Origin: Scyliorhinus canicula
Lineage: Eukaryota
Reading direction: 5' to 3'
Assembly: GCF_902713615.1 (NCBI RefSeq)
Contig: NC_052158.1
Location: 52,856,823 to 52,920,822, forward strand
Length of the DNA: 64,000 nt
The position numbers and the translations under genes are program-made. Below, one piece after another: positions 2,906-61,500 of this stretch. The notes under the pieces were generated by a model that was given only the letters and a program-made list of their open reading frames with translations, was not told the DNA's origin and did not search any database. Position 1 is the first letter of the stretch, and every line of letters starts with the position of its first letter.

Positions 2906-3149
2906 CGAAAGTGCGGTCAAAATGCTGGAACTCCCTCACTAACAGCACAGTGGGCTGATCTACACCCCACGAACTGCAGACGTTCAAGAAGGCAGCTTAA
3001 CACCACCTTCTGAAGGGTAACAAGGGCTGGGCAATAAATGCGGGCCTAATCAGCGATGTTCATATTCCATAAATTAATTTTTACAAAGGTTGATGCGGAG
3101 TTGGACCATTTGGAGCATCCGGGCATCATTCAAACAGTTCAGTTCTTTC

Positions 3150-4020
3150 ATGGATAGGATGGGTATAGAGGGATACGGCACAAGGATGGGTATAGAGGGA
3201 TACGGCACAAGGATGGGTATAGAGGGATACGGCACAAGGATGGGTATAGAGGGATACGGCACAAGGATGGGTATAGAGGGATACGGCACAAGGATGGGTA
3301 TAGAGGGATATGGCACAAGGATGGGTATAGAGAGATACGGCACAAGGATGGGTATAGAGAGATACGGCACAAGGATGGGTATAGAGAGATACGGCACAAG
3401 GATGGGTATAGGGATACAGCACAAGGATGGGTATAGAGGGATACGGCACAAGGATGGGTATAGAGGGATACAGCACAAGGATGGGTATAGAGGCATACGG
3501 CACAAGGATGGGTATAGAGGGATACGGCACAAGGATGGGTATAGAGGGATACGGCACAAGGATGGGTATAGAGGCATATGGCACAAGGATGGGTATAGAG
3601 GGATACAGCACAAGGATGGGTATAGAGGCATACGGCACAAGGATGGGTATAGAGGGATACGGCACAAGGATGGGTATAGAGGGATACGGCACAAGGATGG
3701 GTATAGAGGGATATGGCACAAGGATGGGTATAGAGAGATACGGCACAAGGATGGGTATAGAGGCATATGGCACAAGGATGGGTATAGAGGGATACGGCAC
3801 AAGGAATGGTATAGAGGGATACGGCACAAGGATGGGTATAGAGGGATACGGCACAAGGATGGGTATAGAGGGATACGGCACAAGGATGGGTATAGAGGGA
3901 TACAGCACAAGGATGGGTATAGAGGGATACGGCACAAGGATGGGTATAGAGGCATACGGCACAAGGATGGATATAGAGAGATACGGCACAAGGATGGGTA
4001 TAGAGGGATACGGCACAAGG
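3150..4020. repeat. 27-bp minisatellite (GGATGGGTATAGAGGGATACGGCACAA)n inside a CR1 3' end
   Basis: About 32 tandem units encoding RMGIEGYGT, the same as the CR1 ORF2 terminus RMGIEGY. Followed by CR1 3' UTR (ggagggccgaagggcctgttcctgtgctg) and tail. Confidence 0.93.
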
Positions 4021-4119
4021 AAGTGCTGAGGGTTTGGCAAAGATTGGTATCATGATCTGTACAGGCTGGAGGGCCGAAGGGCCTGTTCCTGTGCTGTATT
4101 GTTCTTCTTTGTTCTTTAA

Positions 4120-10780: not shown

Positions 10781-12330
10781 GATCCTGGCCATGGCCCGCT
10801 TTATGGTGACCAGGCCCCTCCTGGAATATGCCGGGGAATTTCACCAAACCTCCTTCCAGCAAACCTGCTGCCAAACCAACAGCAGGTGCCACTGCCAATC
10901 GCAGCCCAGCAAACTCTGTCCACCGCAGTGTAGCAGGTGCCACTGCCAATCGCAGCCCAGCAAACTCTGTCCACCGCAGTGTAGCAGGTGCCACTGCCAA
11001 TCGCAGCCCAGCAAACTCTGTCCACCGCAGTGTAGCAGGTGCCACTGCCAATCGCAGCCCAGCAAACTCTGTCCACCGCAGTGTAGCAGGTGCCACTGCC
11101 AATCGCAGCCCAGCAAACTCTGTCCACCGCAGTGTAGCAGGTGCCACTGCCAATCGCAGCCCAGCAAACTCTGTCCACCGCAGTGTAGCAGGTGCCACTG
11201 CCAATCGCAGCCCAGCAAACTCTGTCCACCGCAGGGTAGGCTTGCTGTTTGCTGTCTGTATGTGACGGGGCCCATCAATATACCTTCTGACACCAATGGG
11301 CCTCCCCCCGTTTACGTTGCCAACTAGGCACCAGTATCCCTCAACATCAATGTCTGGGGGTCGGACCGAATTCTGTTGAAAGTGCGGCACCTGACCACGG
11401 AGACCGCTGCCCTGGAGACAGCTCCATTTGGATGGAGTGTCCATTTATCTGTCGGGTCATCTGGATGGGGGCAACTCGTCCAGTACAGCTGTTCGTAAGG
11501 GGGCGTCTTCTACCCCCATGTGGTAAGCCCGGACACATAGACTTCAATCGCGCCCAGTCAGGCGACAGACAAATGCAGACAATTGATTGGCCCAGTTGTG
11601 GCGGCTGGATGGTGCCAACCCATAATCACCATCCGGGCCTTCGTTCTCAGGGGAAAGCTCACGGTGGCTTTCGGGGCCTCTGCACCAGTGGCCGGCTTCC
11701 CTGTGGGTCTGCCCCATTGAGGCCCTGCAGGCCGCAGACAAAATGATCCTGCAGAGTCTCATTCAATACAGCACTATACCTGCAGCTTTCCGCTAGTTTC
11801 TCAGTCAGGAAAAAAAATAATCGCTGGTCAATTCGCCCTGGGCCTGGGAGGAGGTATGGAAGTGAAAACGGTGAACAATGCGCCGGGGTTTTGGGTGGTA
11901 ATGATTCCCCACGAGGGCCATCGAAATGTCAAAAGACCAGGTACTGGGCGCAACTAGGTGAGTCAGACTGTTAATTATGCTATAGGTTGGCCTTTCATCC
12001 CCTATAATCGCATTCGTCTGAAAAAAGTATCACATCCGTTCGATGTACTGCTCCCAGTTGTCTGTACCCGCCTCGAATGGTTCCAACTTCCCAATGTGGA
12101 GCATCTCTGCAGGCGGGTTGGAGGCCACCGTGGGCCGAAACCAGATGGTTTGGCTTTGCAGCACCCAGTGCCACCGGCGGCTCCACTTTAACATTGTTGC
12201 CAATGTAATATCTAAGCTGAGAGGGTCTCCCTCCACGACCTGCACCCAGGTTGGTGTTTTCAATACTGTGAGGGCTCCTCACATTAAGGGGGAATCTCAT
12301 CCCAAAGCTGGGGAATTTCATATGCATTGA
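10780..12330 (-). mobile_element. Decayed Gypsy element (LTR-like part, gag start, protease, 3' region) containing a 51-bp minisatellite
   Basis: MLHIGKLEPFEAGTDNWEQYIERM gag start; protease-like segment at 11400-11480; about 7 x 51-bp units at 10882-11233. Confidence 0.65.
10882..11233. repeat. 51-bp tandem repeat, about 7 near-identical copies
   Basis: GCAGGTGCCACTGCCAATCGCAGCCCAGCAAACTCTGTCCACCGCAGTGTA repeated. Confidence 0.95.
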
Positions 12331-15769: not shown

Positions 15770-16700
15770 AATCTGGGCACCATAAGAAAGGGTTTGTGGC
15801 CCACATTCCCTTGGCTCTGCCATATTATTTCTATATGGCCCCATATGTTTGCGGCCTAAAGTGGGCGCTGAGTTAGACCAACTAGAAAGTCTGATCATAC
15901 ATCCTGTCCAGTTCTCTGACTGGGCGCCGCCGGTCATACCCGTGATGAAGCCTGATGGCTCCGTGTGGCGATTACAAGATGACGGTGAACCGTGTCACTT
16001 GACTGGACCCTGAAATAGAAGACTTGTACGCAAAGCTCAGTGGCAGCCGCACATTTACCAAGCTAGGCACGAGCCACTCGTACACTCCAGGTGATCCTGG
16101 CCCCCAGCTCCCGCACTTGTGACCATAAACACGCTTTGGGGGCTCGTTGAATATACCCGGTTGCCATTTGGGGATTCCTCAGCATGCGCCATTTTCCAGA
16201 GGGTAATGAAAAACATCCTGGGGGAGCTGCTGCATGTGGCGGTATATCGGGTTGACGTCTTAATTATGGGCTCATCTGACCGACAGTTGCACAACTTGGC
16301 CAAGATACTCCGGTGCTTCGAGGAGGTTGCCGTTCGCCTCCAATAGGAAAAAATGTGTTCTCAACACAGCCGGAGTCACATATCTGGGATACTTCATCAG
16401 CCATGGGTTACCTCCCATCGAAGGGAACGTACGGGCAATTCAACAGGCACCCGCACCCACCCGGACCGATGGATGCTTATTTTCAGGCCTGCTGAACTAT
16501 TGCGGGAAGTTCATCCCGCGCCTGGCCATGCCTTAGTGCCTCTCCACAGTCTGTTGAAGAAGGGTCAACCATGGGAATAGGTCCAAGTGCAGAAAATGGC
16601 TTTTGCCACAGTGAAACATCAGCTGTCATCCAAAAACTGCTGGCCCATTTCGACCCTTCAAAACAGCTCTCACTGACGTGCGACGCCTCCCTTAATGGAG
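15770..16700 (+). pseudogene. Gypsy RT/RNase H pseudogene fragment
   Basis: QFSDWAPPVIPVMKPDG, TINTLWGLVEYTRLPFGDSSACAIFQRVM and LTCDAS motifs, frameshifted. Confidence 0.85.
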
Positions 16701-17089
16701 TTGGTGTCACCCTTGGATTGGATTTGACTGGATTTGTTTATTGTCACGTGTACCGAGGTACAGTGAAAAGTATTTTTCTGCAAGCAGCTCAAAAGATCAT
16801 TAAGTATATGGGATGAAAAGGGAATAAAAGGAAATACATAATAGGGCAACACAAGGTATACAATGTAACTACATAAGCACCGGTATCGGATGAAGCATTC
16901 AGGGTTCGTTCGCTCTGGGCTTCCTCGCGAGGACTCTGGGCGCTCTGTCAAATTCCAGGGGCCGAGGGAACGCCCTAGCCCCCATCAACTTCTCCAACAT
17001 GTCAGTCACATATACCCTCGCATACAATCCCCCACTGCCTTCAGGGAGGCCTTTGCCTTCAGCAAATGTAAGGGAGCTGTAGACGCTTC

Positions 17090-19780
17090 TTTCCGAATTA
17101 TTAGGTCTCCTACACTCAATTGGATGTAAAGTTAACCCGGAAAAGGCCCAAATCCGAAAAGAAAAGGTCTTTTATTTGGGCACCGTCATCAAACACAGAA
17201 AAAGAGAGATTGAGCAAAAAACGGATTGATTCGATTATTAAATTGCCCTTGCCCCATAATGCACTGCACTCCGGTCATTTTTAGGACTGGTTGGTTACTG
17301 TAGGAACCATATAGACGGTTTTGCCACCAAGGCAGCCCCACTTTCTGAGGTCCGTAAAAAGGACGCCCTTTGGGAATGGCTTCCACAGCATACGGATGCC
17401 ATTGATGCATTAAAACGCGCCCTCGGTACAGTCCCCGCTTTGGAGGGACCAGACCCACACGCCCCATACGCCATAGAAGTAGAGACCACCAACCGAACCC
17501 TATCGGCCGTACTACTCCAAGAAAGGCACAATCGTTTAGGATCCGGAGCCAATGCCTCCCGAGTTATGGACCCAGTCGAGCAAGGATTTTCAGCCTGCGA
17601 AAGGCTGTTTTTTGGGCTGTTCAGTACTTCGCGTACATCACAGACCTCAACCCCGTAACAATTTTAACCGAGCACACCCCCATACTGTTAGACGGTAGGT
17701 TAAAGGACGGTTCAGTTAGCCAGATTAGAGCAGTGCGCTGGACCCTACTCTTACAAGGAAGGGACATCACGGTAAAAAGGACAAAGACACACACATTTTA
17801 GCAGATAGCTTGCAGTATGAAGGAACCCCACATGAGTGTCACATCATTGCAGCCAGGCAGCACACAGGACCCTTTATTCCAAAATCCCTACACCCACGTG
17901 TAGGTAGTAAAGCACAGAATCCACCGACCACGGATAACTCTTCAAAAATTTATGTAGATGGTTCCTCCACCATTGATAATGGAAAAAGGATAACAGGATG
18001 CGGTATTTATGTGGAAGACGCGCAGGGACGCGCGCTAGAGGAGATATCGCTAAAATTACCAGGTCACTTAGGATCGCAGGCAGCCAAATTAGCAGCAATA
18101 GCAGATATAGTGCAGCACCCGGATTCCTTCCCGACCCCCACAGATATAGGGCCGAATTCTCCGACCCCCCACAGGGTCACAGAATCGCCCGGGGCTGGCG
18201 TAAATCCCGCCCCTGCCGTGGCCGAAATTCTCCGCCACCCGGGAATTGGGCGGGGGGCGGGAATTGCGCTCTGCCGGTCGGCGGGCCCCCGCGGCGATTC
18301 TCCGGCCCGCGATGGGCCGAAGTCCCGTCGCTGTCAGGCCTCTCCCGTTGACGTGGTTTAAACCACCTCTGGGAGCAGGCGGCGGGAGTGGGCCCCGGGG
18401 TCCTGGGGGGGACACGGGGCGATCAGACCCCGGGGGATGCCCCCACGGTGGCCTGGCCCGCGATCGGGGCCCACCGATCGGCGGGCGGGCCTGTGCCGTG
18501 GGGGCACTCTTTTTCTTCTGCCGCCACCACGGCCTCCACCATGGCGTAGGCAGAAGAGACCCCCTCCACCACGCATGCGTCGGTGGTGATGTCAGTGGCT
18601 GCTGACGCCCTGGCGCATGCGTGGACTCACGCCGAACGGCGAAGGCCTTTCTGCCAGCCCTGACGCCAGGTTGCGTGGCGCCAAAGGCCGTTGGCGCCAG
18701 TCGGCGGAGCGGGGGCCACTCCGGCGCGGGCCTAGCCCCTAAGGGAGGCCCGACACCAGAGTGGTTGGTGCCATTCCGCTATGCCGGGACCCCCCGCCCC
18801 GCCAGGTAGGGGAGAGTTTCGCCCATATATTCAGACAGTTTATATGTCTGTAACAGTTTGATGGAATTCCTGCCCCTGTGGGAATCTAGAGGATTCATAT
18901 CCGCCGACGGTAAACCCCTACCCACAGCGCCATTACTGAAGCCCATTCTTGAAACAGCGAAAGACCTCAAATGTGGCATAATAAGTTAAAAGTCATCCTC
19001 GTTTGTCCCCACCTGGTAACATAAAAGCAGACGCCCTAGCAAAGGCAGGATCACGACACGGTCACTTTTGGAAAGCCCCCGAGAGTGCCCCAGTACACAC
19101 AGTCCCAGTCTCACAGGCGAATGTCCAAGGTTTAACACAGGCCCAAAAGGCAGACGATACTCTTCAGCAAATTTTAAATGGTAACTTCGCAGCCCCATAC
19201 GACAAATTCAAGGACACACTGACGGTACAGGACGGAATAATTTGAAAGAATGGAATTTATTTGGTCCCCACCCAGGACAAGAACCAGATTATTTGTCAAT
19301 TTCATGACGAACATGGACATCAGGGGATAGAAACCACCATTGCCCACTTAAGACCTTTGTGCTGGTGGCCCGATTTAAAAGCAGACGTCACGCATTATAT
19401 GGAATATTGTTTAATTTGCACTCAAAATAATCCAGAAAGATACTCTATAGAAAGGTCAGTTAAGACACATCCGCCCTGTTAATGGCCTGGACAAATTTAC
19501 AGCTAGATTATATTGGTTCCCCCCCCCCCCCCTCCCCACCCTGCAGAAATGGTTTCAAATATGTGTTGGTAGTAGTCGACACCTTCACAAAATGGGTGGA
19601 AGCATTTCCCGCCAGGACAAACACAGCTAAGGCAACAGCGAAGATTTTAACACAGCAAATATTTACACCCCCCGCAGCATTGAATCGGACCAAGGTTCGC
19701 ATTTTACAGGAAGAGTGATGCAGAACGTTTTGACGATGTTTGGGATAAAACCAAAATTCCATATTGCCTATCACCCACAA
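17090..19780 (+). pseudogene. Retrovirus-like pol remnant: RT thumb - tether - RNase H - integrase
   Basis: GCKVNPEKAQI...FYLG; LRSFLGLVGYCRNHI; degenerate RH tether (YAIEVETTNRTLSAVLLQ...ASRVM); RNase H IYVDGS/GCGIYV/SQAAKLAA/YSDS/GNIKADALAK; IN FHDEHGHQ..CLIC, QLDYIG, VVDTFTKWVEAFP, ESDQG, YHPQSSG. Several frameshifts and a MITE insertion. Confidence 0.85.
18149..18824. mobile_element. GC-rich MITE (Harbinger-like) inserted in the RNase H coding region
   Basis: TIRs GGGCCGAATTCTCC / GGAGAGTTTCGCCC; 3-bp ATA duplication at 18146-18148 and 18825-18827. Removing it restores TDIYSDS. Confidence 0.85.
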
Positions 19781-20724
19781 TCCAGCGGCCCGCCTACTGA
19801 CAACCTAGTCTGACCTTCCCCCAGCCAGGACAGCACGTCCACAGACCCGACCTTGTCTCTGCCCCCAGGAACGACTTTCCACCTTAAACTTGATTTGGAC
19901 GCTAGCGACAGCACTCCAAACTTATAGCCACCCATGCCCCAGTCGCTTCAGCCCCAGGAACCCCGACCAAGGTATGTTTCGTCCCTCATACCCCCTTTCA
20001 TTGCCACAGCCAGAGCCACCGCCACCGCCCGACGATAGAAATTTGCCCTTTGCAGCTACCGCCCCTCATGACCAAAGAATTCCCCATTGGCACCACGATA
20101 ACTCTAGTCGATTAAAACAAAACGATGATTCGGATCCCACAACGCGCACGCGGCCACAGCACGAAAACGGCAGACATGAGTTTGGCAACCGGGTGATGGT
20201 GATGACTCAGAGTCTGACTCCCATTATGGTAACCCTTTCACGACGCTTTTTGAAATGGAACCCTGAGGTGTCCAGATGATGAGAAAAAGGAACTGATTGA
20301 GATTTACGGTGTCCTATTTTCTGATGGAGCCTCCCCGAATTTATTTCTGGAATTTCTTGATACACTTTATTCTTCCGGTCTCGGATGTTTAATTAATGTC
20401 ACCCATCCACTAAATTTCTTGATGCAGTCATGATTACTCGTTTGCACATTGTCGGAGTCCATATGTTACAAATTGTTTCCGCTCGTGTAAGGACACCCAG
20501 GCAGTGGAGTAACGACACTAATCCCCGCCCTGCCTGAGGACCCCCATGTATTCGGTCAGCCAAGCTCGAGTAGTTGAGCAACGGCACTGATCATCGCCCG
20601 ACACGGGGATTCCACCCATTCTTCCCCTGGTAGTAGTCTCATACACACCTCATGTTCCCATCACTGATTTGGAAAAGTTTTTTTTTAAAGTCTTTGTTTC
20701 CCCTGATCTGTTCTTTTTTGTGTT

Positions 20725-21493
20725 ATGGTTGAAAGAATGCTCTTTGCCACAGCCTCTGCCCACAGCTCTTTACTTTCAGCGACTCTTTGGTCGCTACCCT
20801 ACCTGCTATTCACATGTTTGACCCCCTTGGTTGTAACAAAAGTTGCTGCTATACACAAACTACCTTTACACAGGACAGATAAATTGTCCACCCACTCAAT
20901 GCATCGACCACACGCTGCGAGATGGCTTGCACTTTAACAGAATGTTTTTTTTTTGGATGTCTTATCTCCAAAATGGTCATTTCAAAAAAAATGAGGGAGT
21001 TACCAATAGTGACAATTTTACTGGGAAATTAGGGAGAGAAAGACAGACAAACGCAATATTAAACAAAGGTAATAAAGATATAATGCTTGCACCTCCAAGA
21101 ATGTACGAGGATACAAGGCACAAAAGACAAGAAGGTGAATACAGAACTGATGACCTCCATTATGATCATTGTTGGATCACTACAGTTGCGCCGTCAACAG
21201 CCCCTGTAACCCACACCACACTGGCCGCAAACACAACCATACCACACGATACCCCGAGCCCAGACACTACACCTCACATGGAAATGAACACTGATACGCC
21301 CACATGGTGCAAAAACATTGTAAAATGGTATCCCCTCTCGGACATGGTAAACGCCCTATTGGTAACTGCAATACTCTGCAGTGTCTTTCAGACACTTAGA
21401 CTTCGAAAATGGCGAAGGAGAGCCTCCCGCTCCCCGATATATACACTCCGAGCCCCTTTTCTTGGAATTCAACAGACCCCACAAACATTTTGA
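20725..21493 (+). pseudogene. env-like / type I membrane glycoprotein ORF of the retrovirus-like element, frameshifted near 20840
   Basis: Hydrophobic N-terminus (20725 frame); NFT and NTT sequons; RHKR furin-type site; Thr/Pro-rich stalk; TM MVNALLVTAILCSVFQTL; basic stop-transfer RLRKWRRR. Confidence 0.55.
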
Positions 21494-21721
21494 ACCCCTT
21501 TCCCTGATGAATAAAGTTTTTGTTTTCTGTAAATTTAAGGAGTTAAGTAGAATTGTATTGCTACTGTTGTTTAAAATTTTTGTATTGTAATATAAGTTCC
21601 CTTTTTGTTATTTGACATCAGCATGAGTGTAGTTTAGGTAATGACAGTTAGAGGTTCCCCTTGTGTAAAGAAGTTACGTGAATGATGAAATGTTATAGTG
21701 CCCCCAAAGAATTTATAAATG

Positions 21722-22705
21722 TGTGATATATTGGAAATAAAAACTTAGGTAAGTGCTCCAATACAGAGGACAGAGTAGTATAGAACCTGTCCTTGACCCA
21801 GGGTAACCGGCACACCAAAGAACAGATGAAGGATCAGTATTATGATCCACCACGATTCGAGTTTATGACCAAGAGGATGGACTGTAGCCATCTGGGATTG
21901 CCACTTACAAAGGAAACATGGATACTCGCAAAGACTTAAGGGAAATATGGTCAATACAGGATTCAGGCAAATTCAGAGCCTAAATGTATATTTGCTAACA
22001 GAGAACCAGACAGTATCGAAACCCCTAGCCGATTTGCATTCTAATGGCACATTTCCCCAGGACAAAGGACTGGTAACTCAGGTATCAGATACAATTCCAG
22101 ACACATCGGCGTCACTCCCTTCACCCAGGAAGCCCAAACAGCCAAGGTCAATAACCGCTCAGGACACGCCCAGCCACCAAGGCCCCTGCCCCTTTATTGG
22201 CTCAAATCAAAGGCAGTAATCGAAGCCTGCCGAATTATTGGGTCCAAAGTGAAGGACCACCAAAAAGAGCGCGAAACCCCAAAGGATAAAGAGAGAGACT
22301 GACATGTGTTCGATCTCTTTTGGCCCTGGCACACCGGCACTCTTCGGCCCGACGTATACCTGAAGCCAACAACCAGAAGCAAGTTCAAGATCAACGATTG
22401 CTACCAGACGGATGAGCCCAGCAGAACCGAAGTTATTTCCCCAGACCCAGCCACTCCAGATCCGAACAAAGGCCTTGTTCCTCTGCCAAAGCCGGGTGCC
22501 CGAAGTTAAGTACAGGTTGTTATAGTGTTAGGTATAATTTAGCTTGTAGTGTTTTTATGTTGCATGTGTGAGTTGATTTTGTGTGTAAATAAACTATTAT
22601 TGAACTTGAACTAACTAACTGGTTGTTGGGTCTTTGATCAATATCCAGTTGAACCTTGTGGTGGTATCATTTGATGCCTGGCGATTCTGAAAGCAATATC
22701 CTTAC
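21722..22705 (+). mobile_element. Probable 3' LTR of the retrovirus-like element
   Basis: Begins TGTGATATA after an AT-rich 3' UTR; AATAAA near 22588 followed by a U5-like tract. No partner LTR or clear PPT seen. Confidence 0.45.
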
Positions 22706-22715
22706 TAATATCTGA

Positions 22716-39100: not shown

Positions 39101-42100
39101 CCCTCAGTTTCACCGGACCCCTACCCCCACTCACTATCTGCAGCCTGGCCACGTTGCGAATCTCCCCCCCTCCTCTCTTTGCCAACCTCACCCCGGACTG
39201 TAAACCCGTAGCCACTCGCAGCAGGCGATGCAGCCGACAGGACAGGGTGTTCATCCGATCGGAGGGGATCATAGAGGCCAGCAACAGCCCCTGGAGAGCT
39301 CAGGTGGTGGTCGTCAAGACCGGGGAAAAATTCCGCATGGTCATAGACTATAGTCAGACCATTAATAGGTTTACGCTCCTCGACGCATACCCCCTCCCCA
39401 GGATTGCAGACATGGTTAACCAGATCGCCCAGTATCGGATTTTTTCCACGGTGGATCTGAAGTCTGCATACCACCAGCTCCCAATCCACCCGGAGATCCG
39501 CCACTACACGGCATTCGAGGCGGATGGCCGCCTCTTCCATTTCCTCCGGGTTCCCTTCGGCGTCACAAATGGGGTTTCGGTGTTCCAACGAGCAATGGAC
39601 CGAATGGTGGACCAGTACGGGCTACGGGCCACATTCCCGTACTTGGATAACATTACCATCTGTGGCTATGACCAGCAGAACCACGACGCCAACCTCTACC
39701 GTTTTCTCCAGACGGCTCAGAAACTAAATCTAACAGGAGAAATGCGTTTTCCGCACGACCAGATATGCCGTGGAAAACGGAGTCCTGGGCCCCGACCCGG
39801 ACCGTATGCTCTTAGAAGTCCCTCTCCCTCATTGTCCCAAGGCCCTCAAACAGTGCTTGGGATTTTTTTTCCTATTACGCCCAGTGGGTCCCTCAATATG
39901 CGGACAAAGCCCGCCCACTCTTTAAGGCCACACTATTTCCCCTGTCAGCTGAGGTGCGCCAGGCCTTCAACTGCATCAAGGAGGACATCGCCAAAGCGGC
40001 CATGCGGGCGGTGGATGAATCCACTCCATTCCAGGTTGAGAGCGATGCCTCAGAGGTAGCTCTTGCAGCCACATTAAATCAGGCAGGGAGACCAGTCGCA
40101 TTTTTCTCCCGAAACCTCTCTGCTTCGGAACTCCGACACTCGGCAGTCGAAAAGGAAGCACAAGCCATTGTGGAGGCTATTCGTCACTGGAGGCACTACC
40201 TCGCAGGTAGGAGGTTCACCCTCATCACCGACCAAAGATTGGTTGCCTTCATGTTCGACAACTCGCAAAGGGGCAAAATTAAAAACGATAAAATTCTGCG
40301 GTGGAGGATCGAAGTCACCACCTATAGCTACGATATTAAATATCGACCGGGGAAGCTCAACGAGCCCCCAGATGCCCTATCCCGCGGGACGTGTGCCAGC
40401 GCACAGAGCGACCGCCTAAAAGTCATCCACAACGACCTCTGCCACCCGGGGGTCACCCTGCTCGCCCACTACATCAAAGCCCGAAATCTGCCTTTCTCCA
40501 CTGAGGAGGTAAAAGCTGTCACCAGAGACTGCCCGATCTGTGCGGAGTGCAAACCGCACTTCTATAGACCAGACAGGGCCCACCTGGTCAAGGCTTCTAG
40601 GCCCTTTGAACGCCTCGCGATCAATTTCAAAGGGCCACTCCCCTCAACTAACAGGAACGTTTACTTCCTAAACGTTATAGACGAGTTCTCCCGCTTCCCC
40701 TTTGCTATCCCATGCCCTGATATGACCTCCCACACAGTCATTAGGGCCCTGCATAGTATCTTCACCCTGTTTGGTTTCCCCAGATACGTGCACAGCGACC
40801 GGGGTTCGTCCTTCATGAGCGACGATCTGCGTCAGTACCTGCTCGACAAGGGCATCGCCTCGAGCAGGACTACCAGCTACAACCCCAGGGGGAACGGGCA
40901 GGTGGAGAGGGAGAACGCGTCGGTCTGGAAGACCGTCCTACTGACCCTCCGGTCCAGGAATCTCCCAGTCTCCCATTGGCAGGATGTCCTTCCAGACGCG
41001 CTCCACGCCATTAGGTCCCTCTTATGCACCGCGACCAATCAGACCCCTCACGAGCGGCTCTTTCGTTTTTCCAGGGGCACTACCACGGGAGTCTCTCTCC
41101 CGGCATGGCTGAAGACACCGGGCCCCGTACTCCACAGGAAGCACGTAAGGGCGCACAAAACTGACCCCCTTGTAGAGAAGGTGCGCCTGCTTCACTCAAA
41201 TCCCCAGTACGCCTTCGTAGAGCTCCCTGACGGCCGTCAGGACACGGTATCCCTCCGGGATCTAGTACCCGCAGGATCCAGCATCCCCACTATCACTGCA
41301 CAGGTCACTCTACACCCCACCCAGCCGCCCCCTCGCGCTCCTGAGCCCACTAGCTCGCTACAATTGTTTCGCGCACCCACACCGGCTAGCTCCCAGCGCC
41401 CCCAGTCCCCAGTCGAACCAGACGTGTATGGAGCTCGGATGCAATCGCCCCCGGAGTCCGCCATCGTACCCCAACCCACAACACCCATCCAGCCACCACA
41501 AGAGGCTGCAAACCCGGTGCTCCGCAGATCACAGCGGACGACTCGACTACCGGACAGACTCAATTTGTGAACCACCACACCCGCCGGACTTGATTTTTTG
41601 TAGGGGGTGAATGTGGTGAATGTAATTCACACTGTAATATATTATTGTAAGCGCAGTTGCGTTGCCCTACCACAAGGGGGAGTAGCACTGGGAATGCATA
41701 GGAGTTTGTACAGGGCTCCACCCTTGGCTCCGCCCACAGCTCCTCCCCCTGGACTGCTGTATAAAGATCGATGTCCAGTGCCAGCCGACCAGTTCATCCA
41801 GGGTTCATCGTGTTACAGGCTGGGTCTGTTGTAAGTAGATTAAAACCACTGTTCATATCTTAAAGCACGTATCTCGTGAATTGATGGTCTCATCAGCTCT
41901 TCCTTCCATTTTTCTCTTATTCTCTCGTGTCTTTTCCGAACAATCACCCGTATAGGTCTCCGCAATTTCCCCCTCCTAAGTTTGCCACGTCTAACAGTTC
42001 CTTCAGTAGTGTTTGTCTCGGCACCCATGGGCATGTCCTTGTTTTCCCTACGAAGGAAGCTTTTGACTTGTGTAAATCACAATTCATTCCTCCTGGCCAG

Positions 42101-58578: not shown

Positions 58579-61500
58579 TGTCACAAGATAAGGACAATTA
58601 GATTCCAGATGACCTCATCCGAATCGGAGGTCTCCCAGGGTTTCTCCCTTAACTGGAAGCTCAGCTCTCCAGTATAAAGCCGCTGCCTGGGAGCAGCTCG
58701 GGGTGGAGGCCCTTTGGGGAGCGGAGAGTGTAATATTGGGAATAAATAGAATCTTTATTTACCACCTGGCTGATGAGAATAAATGGAGCTGCTGCCGACG
58801 CCAGACACTACACATCAGAGCCACTTAGAGAGGCCTCGCATCCTTCCGCTGACATGCCACCCATTGGTAAACTTGAGCCTTTTCAGGCAGAGGTTGATGA
58901 CTGGGGATGTCGAAAAAATGCAATACATTTTGCGTACAAATGGGATCGACGGGAATGTGCAACGGACAATGGTGTTGCTTACGGCTTGCGGGGGCGGGGT
59001 CCACATACAGCCTCATTAAGAGCCTCACCCACCCACAGCCGCTGGATACCTGGCTGTTCACCGCGTTGGTGGCCTCAGTGAAGGGGCATCTAGACCCGCA
59101 ACCGCTATTAATCGTCCGAAGATTCCTCACAGCCGCTCAGACCCAGTCGGAATCGACCAGCAACTTCATGGCTCACCTGCGAAAATCAGCAGAAACATGC
59201 GAATTTGGTGCCGATCTTTTTTTTTTTTTTATAAATTTAGAGTACCCAATTATTTTTTCCAATTAAGGGGCAATTTAGTGTGGCCAATCTACCTACTCTG
59301 CACATCTTTGGGTTGTGGGGGTGAAACCCACGCAGACACGGGGAGAATGTGCAAACTCCACACGGACAGTGACCCAGGGCCGGGATTCGAACCCGGGTCC
59401 TCAGCGCCGTAGGCAGCAATGCTAACCACTGTGCCACCGTGCTTTTGGTGCCGATCTTAATGAATCACTGCGAGACAGATTAGTTTGTGGAATCTGTGCC
59501 GGCGACACACAGAGAAAAGTTCTGGGCGTCACTGACCTGATATTGCAAAGCACTGTGGAGATTGCCATCTCCCGTGAAAGCCCGGCAAACGGGGTTCCAG
59601 GAGCTCAGACGAATGGTGGTCTGAACCTCGGCTATCAAACTGCCCGCCACTGGCTCCCGCTCCGGAGGCAGAGCCCCGACAGTGGGCGCCCTCCACAGTG
59701 ACACAGGGCACCACCTCTGAGGCCCGGAATGACACAATACGGTGACCGGGAATATCATTCCTGGCTGGTGACCACCAGCCGTTGGATACCAGGGAACAGC
59801 CGGCCTAGAGAGGGCCCTCTATCCTGCCACCCCACTAGGCGAAACCGCCACCAAAGGGACCAGGCCCCTCCGTGGACAATGAATAGGAGGCCCACCGCAG
59901 GCTGTATTGCATTCCTTCGTCTTGGTTCGATCCTTTGCGAACACCTTTAAGTTTCGTCCCACCGGACATTGGTGGGAAATTCCACCGGGGCCAGGATCGA
60001 GCCGAGACTGACGCTTGATGACGTTCGCCTTTATTCACCTTCGCGGTGGGAAATTCAGTGTAAATCCGGAATTTTGGAGAATGAGCCACTGGGACACCAG
60101 CCGTTGTGTTGGCCCAGATGGTACCAGTCTCCATCGAGTGCGGGCACAAGGACACAAATCCCGTACCAGCCTCCCCGAACAGGCGCCGGAATGTGGCAAC
60201 TAGGGGCTTTTCACAGTAACTTCATTTGAAGCCTACTCATGACAATAAGCAATTTCATTTCATTTCATTTCATTCATCAACATGTGGGCCACCTGCAAAG
60301 TCGCATCCAAGAATTGCCAGTTCCGATTGTAGAGTTATCAGCCCAAAACTGCCCCCAGCTCAAACTGACACCTCCGCCCAGTCGCCAGCATTGGTTTTGG
60401 ATGCACCTACCGTAGAGAAAACTGGTCTTGGACGTACAGGACGGTGAAATGATGAACTACGAGAAACCCTTGGACACTGATTCAGAGGTCGACATGGACA
60501 TGTTGCCACCACCCGAGCCAACGGTGTCTGTTGCAGCACCTATGACCCCACCGAGACGTTCTGCCTGAAGGCGATGCTCCCCAGTCCGGTACAGACGTTT
60601 CGTTTTGGTCTTGGATGGCCGTCTCCGGGCTCAGACGCCTCGACCACCTCCGGGCTCGGACGCCTGGACCATCTCCGGGCTCGGACGCCTGGACAACCTC
60701 CGGGCTCGGACGCCTCGACCACCTCCGGGCTCGGACGCCTCGACCACCTCCGGGCTCGGACGCCTCGACCACCTCCGGGCTCGGACGCCTCGACCACCTC
60801 CGGGCTCGGACGCCTCGACCACCTCCGGGCTCGGACGCCTCGACCACCTCCGGGCTCGGACGCCTCGACCATCTCCGGGCTCGGACGCCTCGACCACCTC
60901 CGGGCTCGGACGCCTCGACCACCTCCGGGCTCGGACGCCTCGACCACCTCCGGGCTCGGACGCCTCGACCACCTCCGGGCTCGGACGCCTCGACCACCTC
61001 CGGGCTCGGACGCCTCGACCACCTCCGGGCTCGGACGCCTCGACCACCTCCGGGCTCGGACGCCTCGACCACCTCCGGGCTCGGACGCCTCGACCACCTC
61101 CGGGCTCGGACGCCTCGACCACCTCCGGGCTCGGACGCCTCGACCACCTCCGGGCTCGGACGCCTCGACCACCTCCGGGCTCGGACGCCTCGACCATCTC
61201 CGGGCTCGGACGCCTCGACCACCTCCGGGCTCGGACGCCTCGACCACCTCCGGGCTCGGACGCCTGGACCACCTCCGGGCTCGGACGCCTCGACCACCTC
61301 CGGGCTCGGACGCCTCGACCACCTCCGGGCTCGGACGCCTCGACCACCTCCGGGCTCGGACGCCTGGACCATCTCCGGACTCGGACGCCTGGACCATCTC
61401 CGGACTCGGACGCCTCGACCACCTCCGGGCTCGGACGCCTGGACCATCTCCGGACTCGGACGCCTCGACCATCTCCGGACTCGGACGCCTCGACCATCTC

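Follow-up and report, generated by a model that had tools for sequence, protein, structure and literature searches.

Structure of the element

The window, i.e., the whole stretch of 64,000 nucleotides that was analysed, harbors a 5'-truncated and broken member of a multi-copy endogenous retrovirus (ERV) family, and matches to other copies of the family begin at 17084-17088. Its features are the following:

17084..17450 (+) 5' break and end (thumb) of the reverse transcriptase (RT), at the start of matches to other copies
17380..17800 (+) tether, a frameshifted, degenerate Gypsy-type RNase H without the first catalytic Asp (RT_RNaseH_2, E = 1e-11; motifs compared with Gypsy RNase H)
17945..18148 (+) first part of the second, retroviral RNase H, with one catalytic position substituted in the window copy (Pfam; matches to the Pols of relatives)
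18149..18824 (.) GC-rich MITE, a later insertion (inverted ends; 3-bp target duplication; absent at the site in other copies)
18825..19060 (+) remainder of the second RNase H, frameshifted (Pfam; matches to the Pols of relatives; RNase H tree of another copy)
19246..19789 (+) broken integrase, with the HHCC finger and part of the core (Pfam; copy comparison)
19790..20266 (+) proline-rich C-terminal tail of Pol (frame open to 20264 across copies; synonymous/non-synonymous 30/37 shared against 57/196 private, p = 6e-4, counting sites and not independent events)
20267..21134 (+) non-coding spacer (no selection signal; many non-triplet indels), closed near 21100 by a splice-acceptor-like tract
21135..21493 (+) gene for a small predicted membrane protein (family length ~119 codons), here without ATG start and frameshifted after the leader
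21871..21882 (+) purine-rich tract before the LTR
21883..22775 (+) 3' LTR, TG...CA, ~890 nt (paired in other copies, 90-95% identity)

Neither a second LTR nor any gag-PR-RT piece was found in the 64-kb window; the 5' LTR, gag, protease and the RT palm are missing from it. Pfam matches over the cut-off were obtained for RT_RNaseH_2 (17260-17655, E = 1e-11) and Integrase_H2C2, while RNase_H matched as two weak pieces flanking the insert and rve as two pieces below the cut-off. Eight of the nine tested pol pieces (17260-19810) match one group of Pols in collinear order, and the piece 17105-17281 has no significant match. These Pfam and collinear matches show that the order of RT thumb, tether, RNase H and integrase read in the original prediction is real, as is the degenerate Gypsy-type nature of the first RNase H, given its domain match and missing Asp. 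The insertion within the second RNase H was also correctly recognized: this MITE, which we take to be Harbinger-like, carries the expected inverted ends and target duplication, and its site is empty in every other copy spanning it.

Other claims had to be amended. The HHCC/DD(E) integrase retains its finger and part of its core, but it is broken, and a deletion at 19789 removed ~580 nt that other copies possess, i.e., the end of the core and the GPY/F region. The ~0.9 kb of extra reading frames after the integrase is mostly Pol tail (to ~20264) and non-coding spacer. An overlapping frame (~19809-20112) is likewise open across copies and carries no selection signal. A gene for a predicted membrane protein is present, although the 218-aa ORF proposed is a frameshifted view of a gene of ~119 codons, and the LTR-like end is a true LTR that runs to 22775 and not to 22705. 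The single RNase H ascribed to the other Gypsy elements of the window holds for both that can be judged, since an RNase H-integrase junction exists in just two of them, at 31.5-33.9 kb and 39.2-41.1 kb; queries with the second RNase H match only the 17090-22705 element at E<0.1.

Fuller copies of the family

A genome search for fuller copies, suggested in the original prediction, recovered members with paired LTRs, gag, protease, a YVDD RT and a tRNA-Arg primer site, which matches the genomic tRNA-Arg(CCG) gene L031. With these 5' parts taken from other copies, the complete PR-RT-tether-RH-IN order, LTRs and primer site are all present in the family, and 18 of 20 fuller loci display the integrase and the collinear 3' region. 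Like that of the snakehead retrovirus (genome L032), Gag contains a coiled coil and one CCHC, and it shares a single frame with pol, the two being split by one stop. GPY/F is present besides the CCHC, and a 4-bp target site duplication is exact in one of three copies and conserved at three of four bases in the two others.

Absence of env

No env was found in any family copy examined, a statement limited to these copies since thousands of further candidates are unscored and could include an env-bearing member. The longest stop-free frame between the GPY/F end of Pol and the small gene measures 106-187 aa in 13 of 14 further loci, and no long frame follows Pol in the copies examined, including any loki-type, Mononegavirales-like fusion env. 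Motifs of the CX6CC or ISD-like type gave three scattered matches across 40 copies, and the C-terminal part of the snakehead retrovirus env, used as genome query, was not found. Among the 20 class I env loci checked out of 78, 17 present an epsilon-like integrase, two have none and one is unclear; none of the 20 carries the LTR of this family. A small-gene match beside one class I env locus turned out to be a neighbouring piece of the family.

We read the lack of env as a secondary loss, as occurred in mammalian ERV-L, and the family is therefore an env-less ERV rather than an infectious retrovirus. Env-less ERVs are thought to multiply intracellularly using gag and pol alone.

The gene for a small predicted membrane protein

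The ~119-codon gene sits between pol and the 3' LTR, at the usual position of env, in at least 150 loci (150 of the 5800 candidates were scored, giving 151 listed matches); the original prediction noticed the membrane ORF and missed both this placement and the selection described below. The splice-acceptor-like tract upstream is found in 24 of 40 copies. Predicted features include a signal peptide, a glycosylation site, one membrane helix and a basic patch, and two helices are predicted at 2-22 and 58-98. With a hydropathy of 1.3 in the closest copies, the first hydrophobic stretch is modest as a signal peptide, and an aromatic stretch precedes the membrane helix. All aligned copies begin with MK, none has an N-myristoylation motif, and the Asn of the N-x-S/T site is near-invariant among them. 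Gene length is constant across subfamilies down to 40% identity.

This gene is under purifying selection between subfamilies and decays neutrally after insertion. Indeed, the median dN/dS is 0.38 at a dS of ~0.9, with values below 1 in 45 of 45 pairs, and the shared synonymous/non-synonymous count is 27/20 against 53/193 private (p = 1.7e-6), these counts again referring to sites and not to independent events. No comparable signal was detected in other frames or spacers, save one spacer frame (p = 0.03). A longer frame of ~275 codons upstream of the small gene was rejected, as it exhibits no selection and 217 non-triplet against 48 triplet indels.

The origin of this gene may be viewed in several ways. 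It is quite conceivable that the gene either was captured from the host, where it encoded a membrane protein, or is an ancestral accessory gene, and that its product works within the producing cell, for instance by countering a restriction factor, without taking part in transfer between cells. Such a replacement has a precedent in CrocERV31, where nectin3 took the place of env (PMC4299795), and three of seven copies gave a weak Pfam match to TMEM156 (E = 6e-4, below the cut-off). However, the genome search with TMEM156 yielded six sub-threshold matches, five of which adjoin the Pol of this family, and no host TMEM156-like gene over the cut-off. Similarly, no homolog was found in protein, atlas, viral-contig (small-gene alignment) or BFVD fold searches, which carry little weight as negatives, the protein being short and its model having a pLDDT of 63. 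Rather less probable is a shrunken env, in which the signal peptide was joined to the anchor and tail and which was retained to assist trafficking or to block a host factor. The position, the predicted topology and the aromatic stretch are those such a remnant would display, but the protein bears no similarity to the snakehead retrovirus env, the env-type motifs are as scattered as stated above, and a constant length across such divergent subfamilies argues against a remnant.

Phylogenetic placement

Trees, free of Odin, class II and fish foamy-like rows, were built with other family copies as RT and RNase H/integrase rows, not the window copy. The RT falls inside canonical retroviruses (100/98), in a clade (96/94) with frog, coelacanth and other unnamed Pols, and outside both class I and the loki clade (100/99). 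The snakehead retrovirus is sister at 88/77, a weak link that a larger tree does not resolve. AU tests, conducted under LG+G4, rejected a grouping with loki-motif Pols (p = 0.003), with Gypsy (p = 0.027) and, marginally, with foamy viruses (p = 0.049). RNase H and integrase did not cluster inside a Gypsy clade, the outcome named in the original prediction as contrary to it, and are placed away from both Gypsy and loki rows. A viral-contig scan with the family RT revealed no relative. The family may belong to class III, clade Huo, given its weak grouping with the snakehead retrovirus.

A tether followed by a second RNase H is a feature of every retrovirus. This clade has already been published from cartilaginous fish, and the dual RNase H is therefore ordinary; nor is the group, supposed to be poorly sampled, an unsampled one, since snakehead-retrovirus-like ERVs are described from chimaera (PMC4422223) and most cartilaginous-fish ERV RTs belong to clade III (10.1101/2023.10.17.562709). 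Two published elements were considered and set aside. The shark ERV-Spuma.0-Sca (PMC10699275) differs at the start of its LTR, in the 400 nt compared, and on that portion is likely another family, whereas ERV4 (PMC4299795) has a 5-bp duplication, no Gag zinc finger, no GPY/F and an env, against the 4-bp duplication, CCHC and GPY/F observed here.

The sister-lineage option of the original prediction is not supported: that the family is a lokiretrovirus or of Odin type, which would be new for cartilaginous fish, is highly improbable. The dual RNase H, the coiled coil in the Gag region and the NYNRIN-like annotation of the closest named Pols, loki integrase being close to CGIN1, all recall these elements, but the RT nests in canonical retroviruses with the loki grouping rejected, the loki and Odin RT motifs of PMC9040795 sd002 are absent as judged by eye, and no fusion-glycoprotein env is found. 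A Gypsy element with a chance insertion of a second RNase H is practically negligible: the tether does score as Gypsy-type, but RT, RNase H and integrase all group with retroviruses, and the second RNase H, absent in 10 of 10 Gypsy rows, is collinear with the Pols of relatives and hence native. The original prediction was right in calling the element retroviral and not Gypsy.

Interpretation

The element is probably a truncated, broken copy of a multi-copy ERV family whose Pol groups with those of class III (clade Huo). The copies examined have no env and possess in its place a gene, maintained by selection, for a small glycoprotein predicted to lie at the cell surface, which probably served the spread of the element. 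An enveloped ancestor would have lost env before the lineage multiplied in the genome; Pol would be made by read-through of the gag-pol stop, and the small gene would be expressed from a spliced RNA as a type I membrane protein. As a working guess that we hold possible though doubtful, this protein would have assisted capsids in getting to the cell surface, or across it, and into adjacent cells. A bolder reading, which seems unlikely, is that a vertebrate retrovirus lineage exchanged env for a fusogen-like membrane protein of ~119 aa and reached the germ line by passing from cell to cell, in convergence with reovirus FAST proteins and the sORF2 retrotransposons of insects.

The small gene, and not the dual RNase H, is the less ordinary part of the family: a lineage without env nevertheless maintained by selection, through deep divergence, a protein predicted to lie at the surface. 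Should this protein bridge membranes, Retroviridae would also have evolved the env-independent cell-to-cell spread that has so far been described for insect Gypsy elements; otherwise, the gene would still be an ERV accessory gene not described before, whose many natural variants can be compared.

Comparison with known systems

The snakehead retrovirus is primed by an Arg tRNA, and its primer site was located in its genome. Its RT core is 45% identical to that of the shark family, which shares with it and with the clade Huo ERVs (PMC6001957; CmiERV lineage I, PMC4422223) a Gag coiled coil with one CCHC, an in-frame gag-pol stop, a long Pol tail and an Arg tRNA primer. On the contrary, the shark family lacks env, which defines CmiERVs (PMC4422223), differs from the snakehead retrovirus in primer-site sequence and in a gag-pol stop that is TGA instead of TAG, and its small gene has no match in the snakehead (L032) frames of 90 aa or more. 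The clade of the family also contains P0188 and the unnamed "NYNRIN-like" Pols of frog and coelacanth (P0001-P0009), a comparison made at the level of Pol, with RT-tether identities of 48-53% (P0001-P0007) and 79% (P0188). Lokiretroviruses and Odin (PMC7947760, PMC9040795) also possess a tether and a second RNase H, and Odin is similarly devoid of env, whereas lokiretroviruses form a separate RT clade and encode a Mononegavirales-like env.

CrocERV31 (PMC4299795) likewise carries a selected membrane-protein ORF in place of env, there a host gene that can still be recognised, in six insertions; in the present family no source gene was found, and the ORF occupies at least 150 loci. The insect sORF2 and reovirus FAST proteins (PMC11952523) offer another likeness, namely an env-less LTR element and a small membrane protein, predicted in the present case, with a single pass and a basic patch after the helix, and some sORF2 genes also lie downstream of pol (PMC11952523). 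Most sORF2/FAST-like members have an N-myristoylation motif (PMC11952523), whereas the shark protein has none and exhibits a predicted signal peptide and an N-glycan site. The likeness is one of layout, with no sequence similarity seen, between Metaviridae for the sORF2 elements and Retroviridae for the shark family.

Structure of the window copy

The features of the window copy, a 5'-truncated and broken endogenous retrovirus (ERV), and of the repeats around it are as follows (window coordinates).

From the 5' cut at 17084, + strand: reverse transcriptase (RT) end, Gypsy-type RNase H (RH), second RNase H and HHCC/DDE integrase (IN), in this order
18149-18824: MITE insert with inverted ends and a 3-bp duplication, absent at the same site from other copies
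21883-22775: LTR of the copy
22776-23807: Harbinger-type transposase fragment directly 3' of the LTR (DDE_Tnp_4, E 9e-30)
15840-16720: decayed Gypsy RT fragment, truncated by another repeat where its RH begins
31450-33880: Gypsy element with RT, single RH and IN, interrupted by a SINE-like repeat
39150-41070: Gypsy element with RT, single RH and IN
3031-4108: tandem array of 27-nt units
10830-11290: tandem array of 51-nt units
60473-61500: tandem array of 25-nt units

The Gypsy-type RNase H lacks its first catalytic Asp, the second RNase H is split by the insert at 18149-18824, and the integrase has lost about 580 nt at its end. The RT-tether-second RNase H-integrase layout of the original prediction is nevertheless present, and since eight of nine pol pieces match a single Pol group in collinear order, the second RNase H is native to the element and not an unrelated insertion. 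This dual RNase H, which had been stressed as unusual, is ordinary retroviral anatomy in a clade already known. Clade Huo is reported to infect all major vertebrate lineages (PMC6001957), a snakehead-like ERV lineage is described in chimaera (PMC4422223) and clade III is given as the majority of cartilaginous-fish ERV RTs (10.1101/2023.10.17.562709).

The LTR ends bear short tandem units whose own ends resemble the terminus. A frame of about 100 codons overlapping the Pol tail (19809-20112) lacks any majority stop among the copies, but shows no selection signal.

Phylogenetic placement

Trees were built from open frames that occur naturally in other copies (with the RT taken from locus L025), leaving the window copy unrepaired. 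The RT tree comprised 53 rows picked by hand among 325 RT domains, none of them Odin, class II or fish foamy-like; loki rows were recognised by motif alone and the snakehead retrovirus through a motif match to an alignment (PMC9040795 sd002). The element is nested within canonical retroviruses (support 100/98), in a clade with frog, coelacanth and unnamed Pols (96/94) to which the snakehead retrovirus is a weak sister (88/77). In a quick tree of 95 rows, the position of the latter was unresolved and an ERV-L-like row fell inside the clade.

The element had been proposed as a basal retrovirus or retrovirus-sister lineage. A loki-type lineage would have been of interest because a search of three Orectolobiformes genomes is reported to have found no lokiretroviruses (PMC7947760). 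This reading fails on the RT tree, on the RH and IN trees, which set the element apart from both Gypsy and loki rows, and on the AU test (p 0.003). Grouping with Gypsy was also rejected (p 0.027), in line with a retroviral rather than Gypsy nature, and grouping with foamy viruses was rejected marginally (p 0.049). A safe working label for the element is a class III, clade Huo-type ERV.

A family without env in the copies examined

The RH-IN stretch retrieved 3671 candidates from the genome, and the 40 that were scored showed 79-89% identity. Twenty fuller loci, taken together, exhibit paired LTRs of about 890 nt, a Gag bearing a coiled coil and a single CCHC knuckle, and a Pol with DTG protease, YVDD RT and GPY/F integrase. 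The primer site of one copy corresponds to the 3' terminus of a tRNA-Arg(CCG) gene present in the genome (20 nt + CCA). In both copies checked, gag and pol share one frame separated by a single stop, as in the snakehead retrovirus. LTR pairs diverge by 0.048, 0.051 and 0.096 (K2P), about 50-100 Myr with the PMC10699275 rate and 110-220 Myr with that of PMC4422223, each of these rates being approximate.

The integrase and 3' region are collinear with the window in 18 of the 20 fuller loci, unrelated insertions aside; of the other two, one runs into a tandem repeat and the second is without pol. In 13 of 14 divergent loci, the Pol GPY/F end lies 1.3-1.7 kb (11 loci) or more (two loci) from a small gene upstream of the 3' LTR, and this interval holds no long env-like frame (no stop-free frame above 187 aa). 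The snakehead retrovirus env found no match in nine copies and the window. The copies seen form an ERV family without env that was amplified to high copy number; a member with env may exist among the candidates left unscored.

Env-bearing epsilon-like class I ERVs are abundant in the same genome (78 loci), and the family LTR was absent from the 20 checked. A divergent family piece (L123:6055-7001) adjoins an epsilon-like provirus; its small gene has 41% identity and a clear signal peptide.

A small gene for a predicted membrane protein, under selection

A membrane ORF had been predicted and is present, but its 218-aa length was a frameshifted view: the gene is unbroken from ATG to stop in 9/40 close copies (105-124 aa) and 8/14 divergent loci (113-120 aa). 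A protein search of the genome gave 5800 candidates; all 150 scored matched (55-100% identity), and further copies go as low as 40% identity. The predicted protein opens with a hydrophobic leader, followed by a stalk rich in Thr and Pro in which the Asn of an N-x-S/T site is nearly invariant; then come a conserved Cys and an aromatic stretch, a single predicted membrane helix, a patch of basic residues and a short tail.

Changes shared among copies comprised 27 synonymous and 20 non-synonymous ones, whereas private changes comprised 53 and 193, respectively (p 1.7e-6; RH-IN control, 85 to 25), and spacers gave no comparable signal in this test (lowest p 0.03, one frame). Among 10 unbroken copies, dN/dS was below 1 in 45/45 pairs, with a median of 0.38 (0.25 in the C-terminal half; dS about 0.9). 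The gene was kept under selection while the family replicated.

RNA reads aligned at 85% likeness derive mostly from other copies (11/2086 at 99% or more in read set X4). In sets X5 and X6, the small gene was covered at a depth of 1.4-4.6 on the strand that sense RNA would give versus 0-0.3 on the opposite one, and the preceding 200 nt had zero depth; X4 was mixed. Assuming library strandedness, this fits, thinly, a subgenomic RNA. In 24/40 copies, an acceptor-like tract lies ahead of the start. The LTR-like sequence is the element's most covered part in RNA runs, MITE excepted, on both strands.

Clusters of similar small-gene copies lie in long local duplications on contigs C31 (9.4-11.2 Mb; L094, L103) and C27 (L095, L096), several with an unbroken gene and little pol; segmental amplification or host use is possible.

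Origin and known counterparts

Env was probably lost from an enveloped ancestor, and the small-gene product is probably a surface glycoprotein serving the element. Two rival explanations carry similar weight: the gene may be what remains of a reduced env, or it may be a captured or accessory one, as described for CrocERV31 (PMC4299795). Searches found no homolog, the sole lead being TMEM156, below cut-off, and a full-text literature search, with Repbase and subscription journals outside its scope, found no description of the gene. What is new, and worth following, is the combination of an env-less design and an orphan membrane gene under selection. The layout of the small protein recalls the sORF2/FAST proteins, which have been linked to the way insect elements without env enter the germ line (PMC11952523), although it has, in place of their myristoylation motif, a predicted signal peptide.
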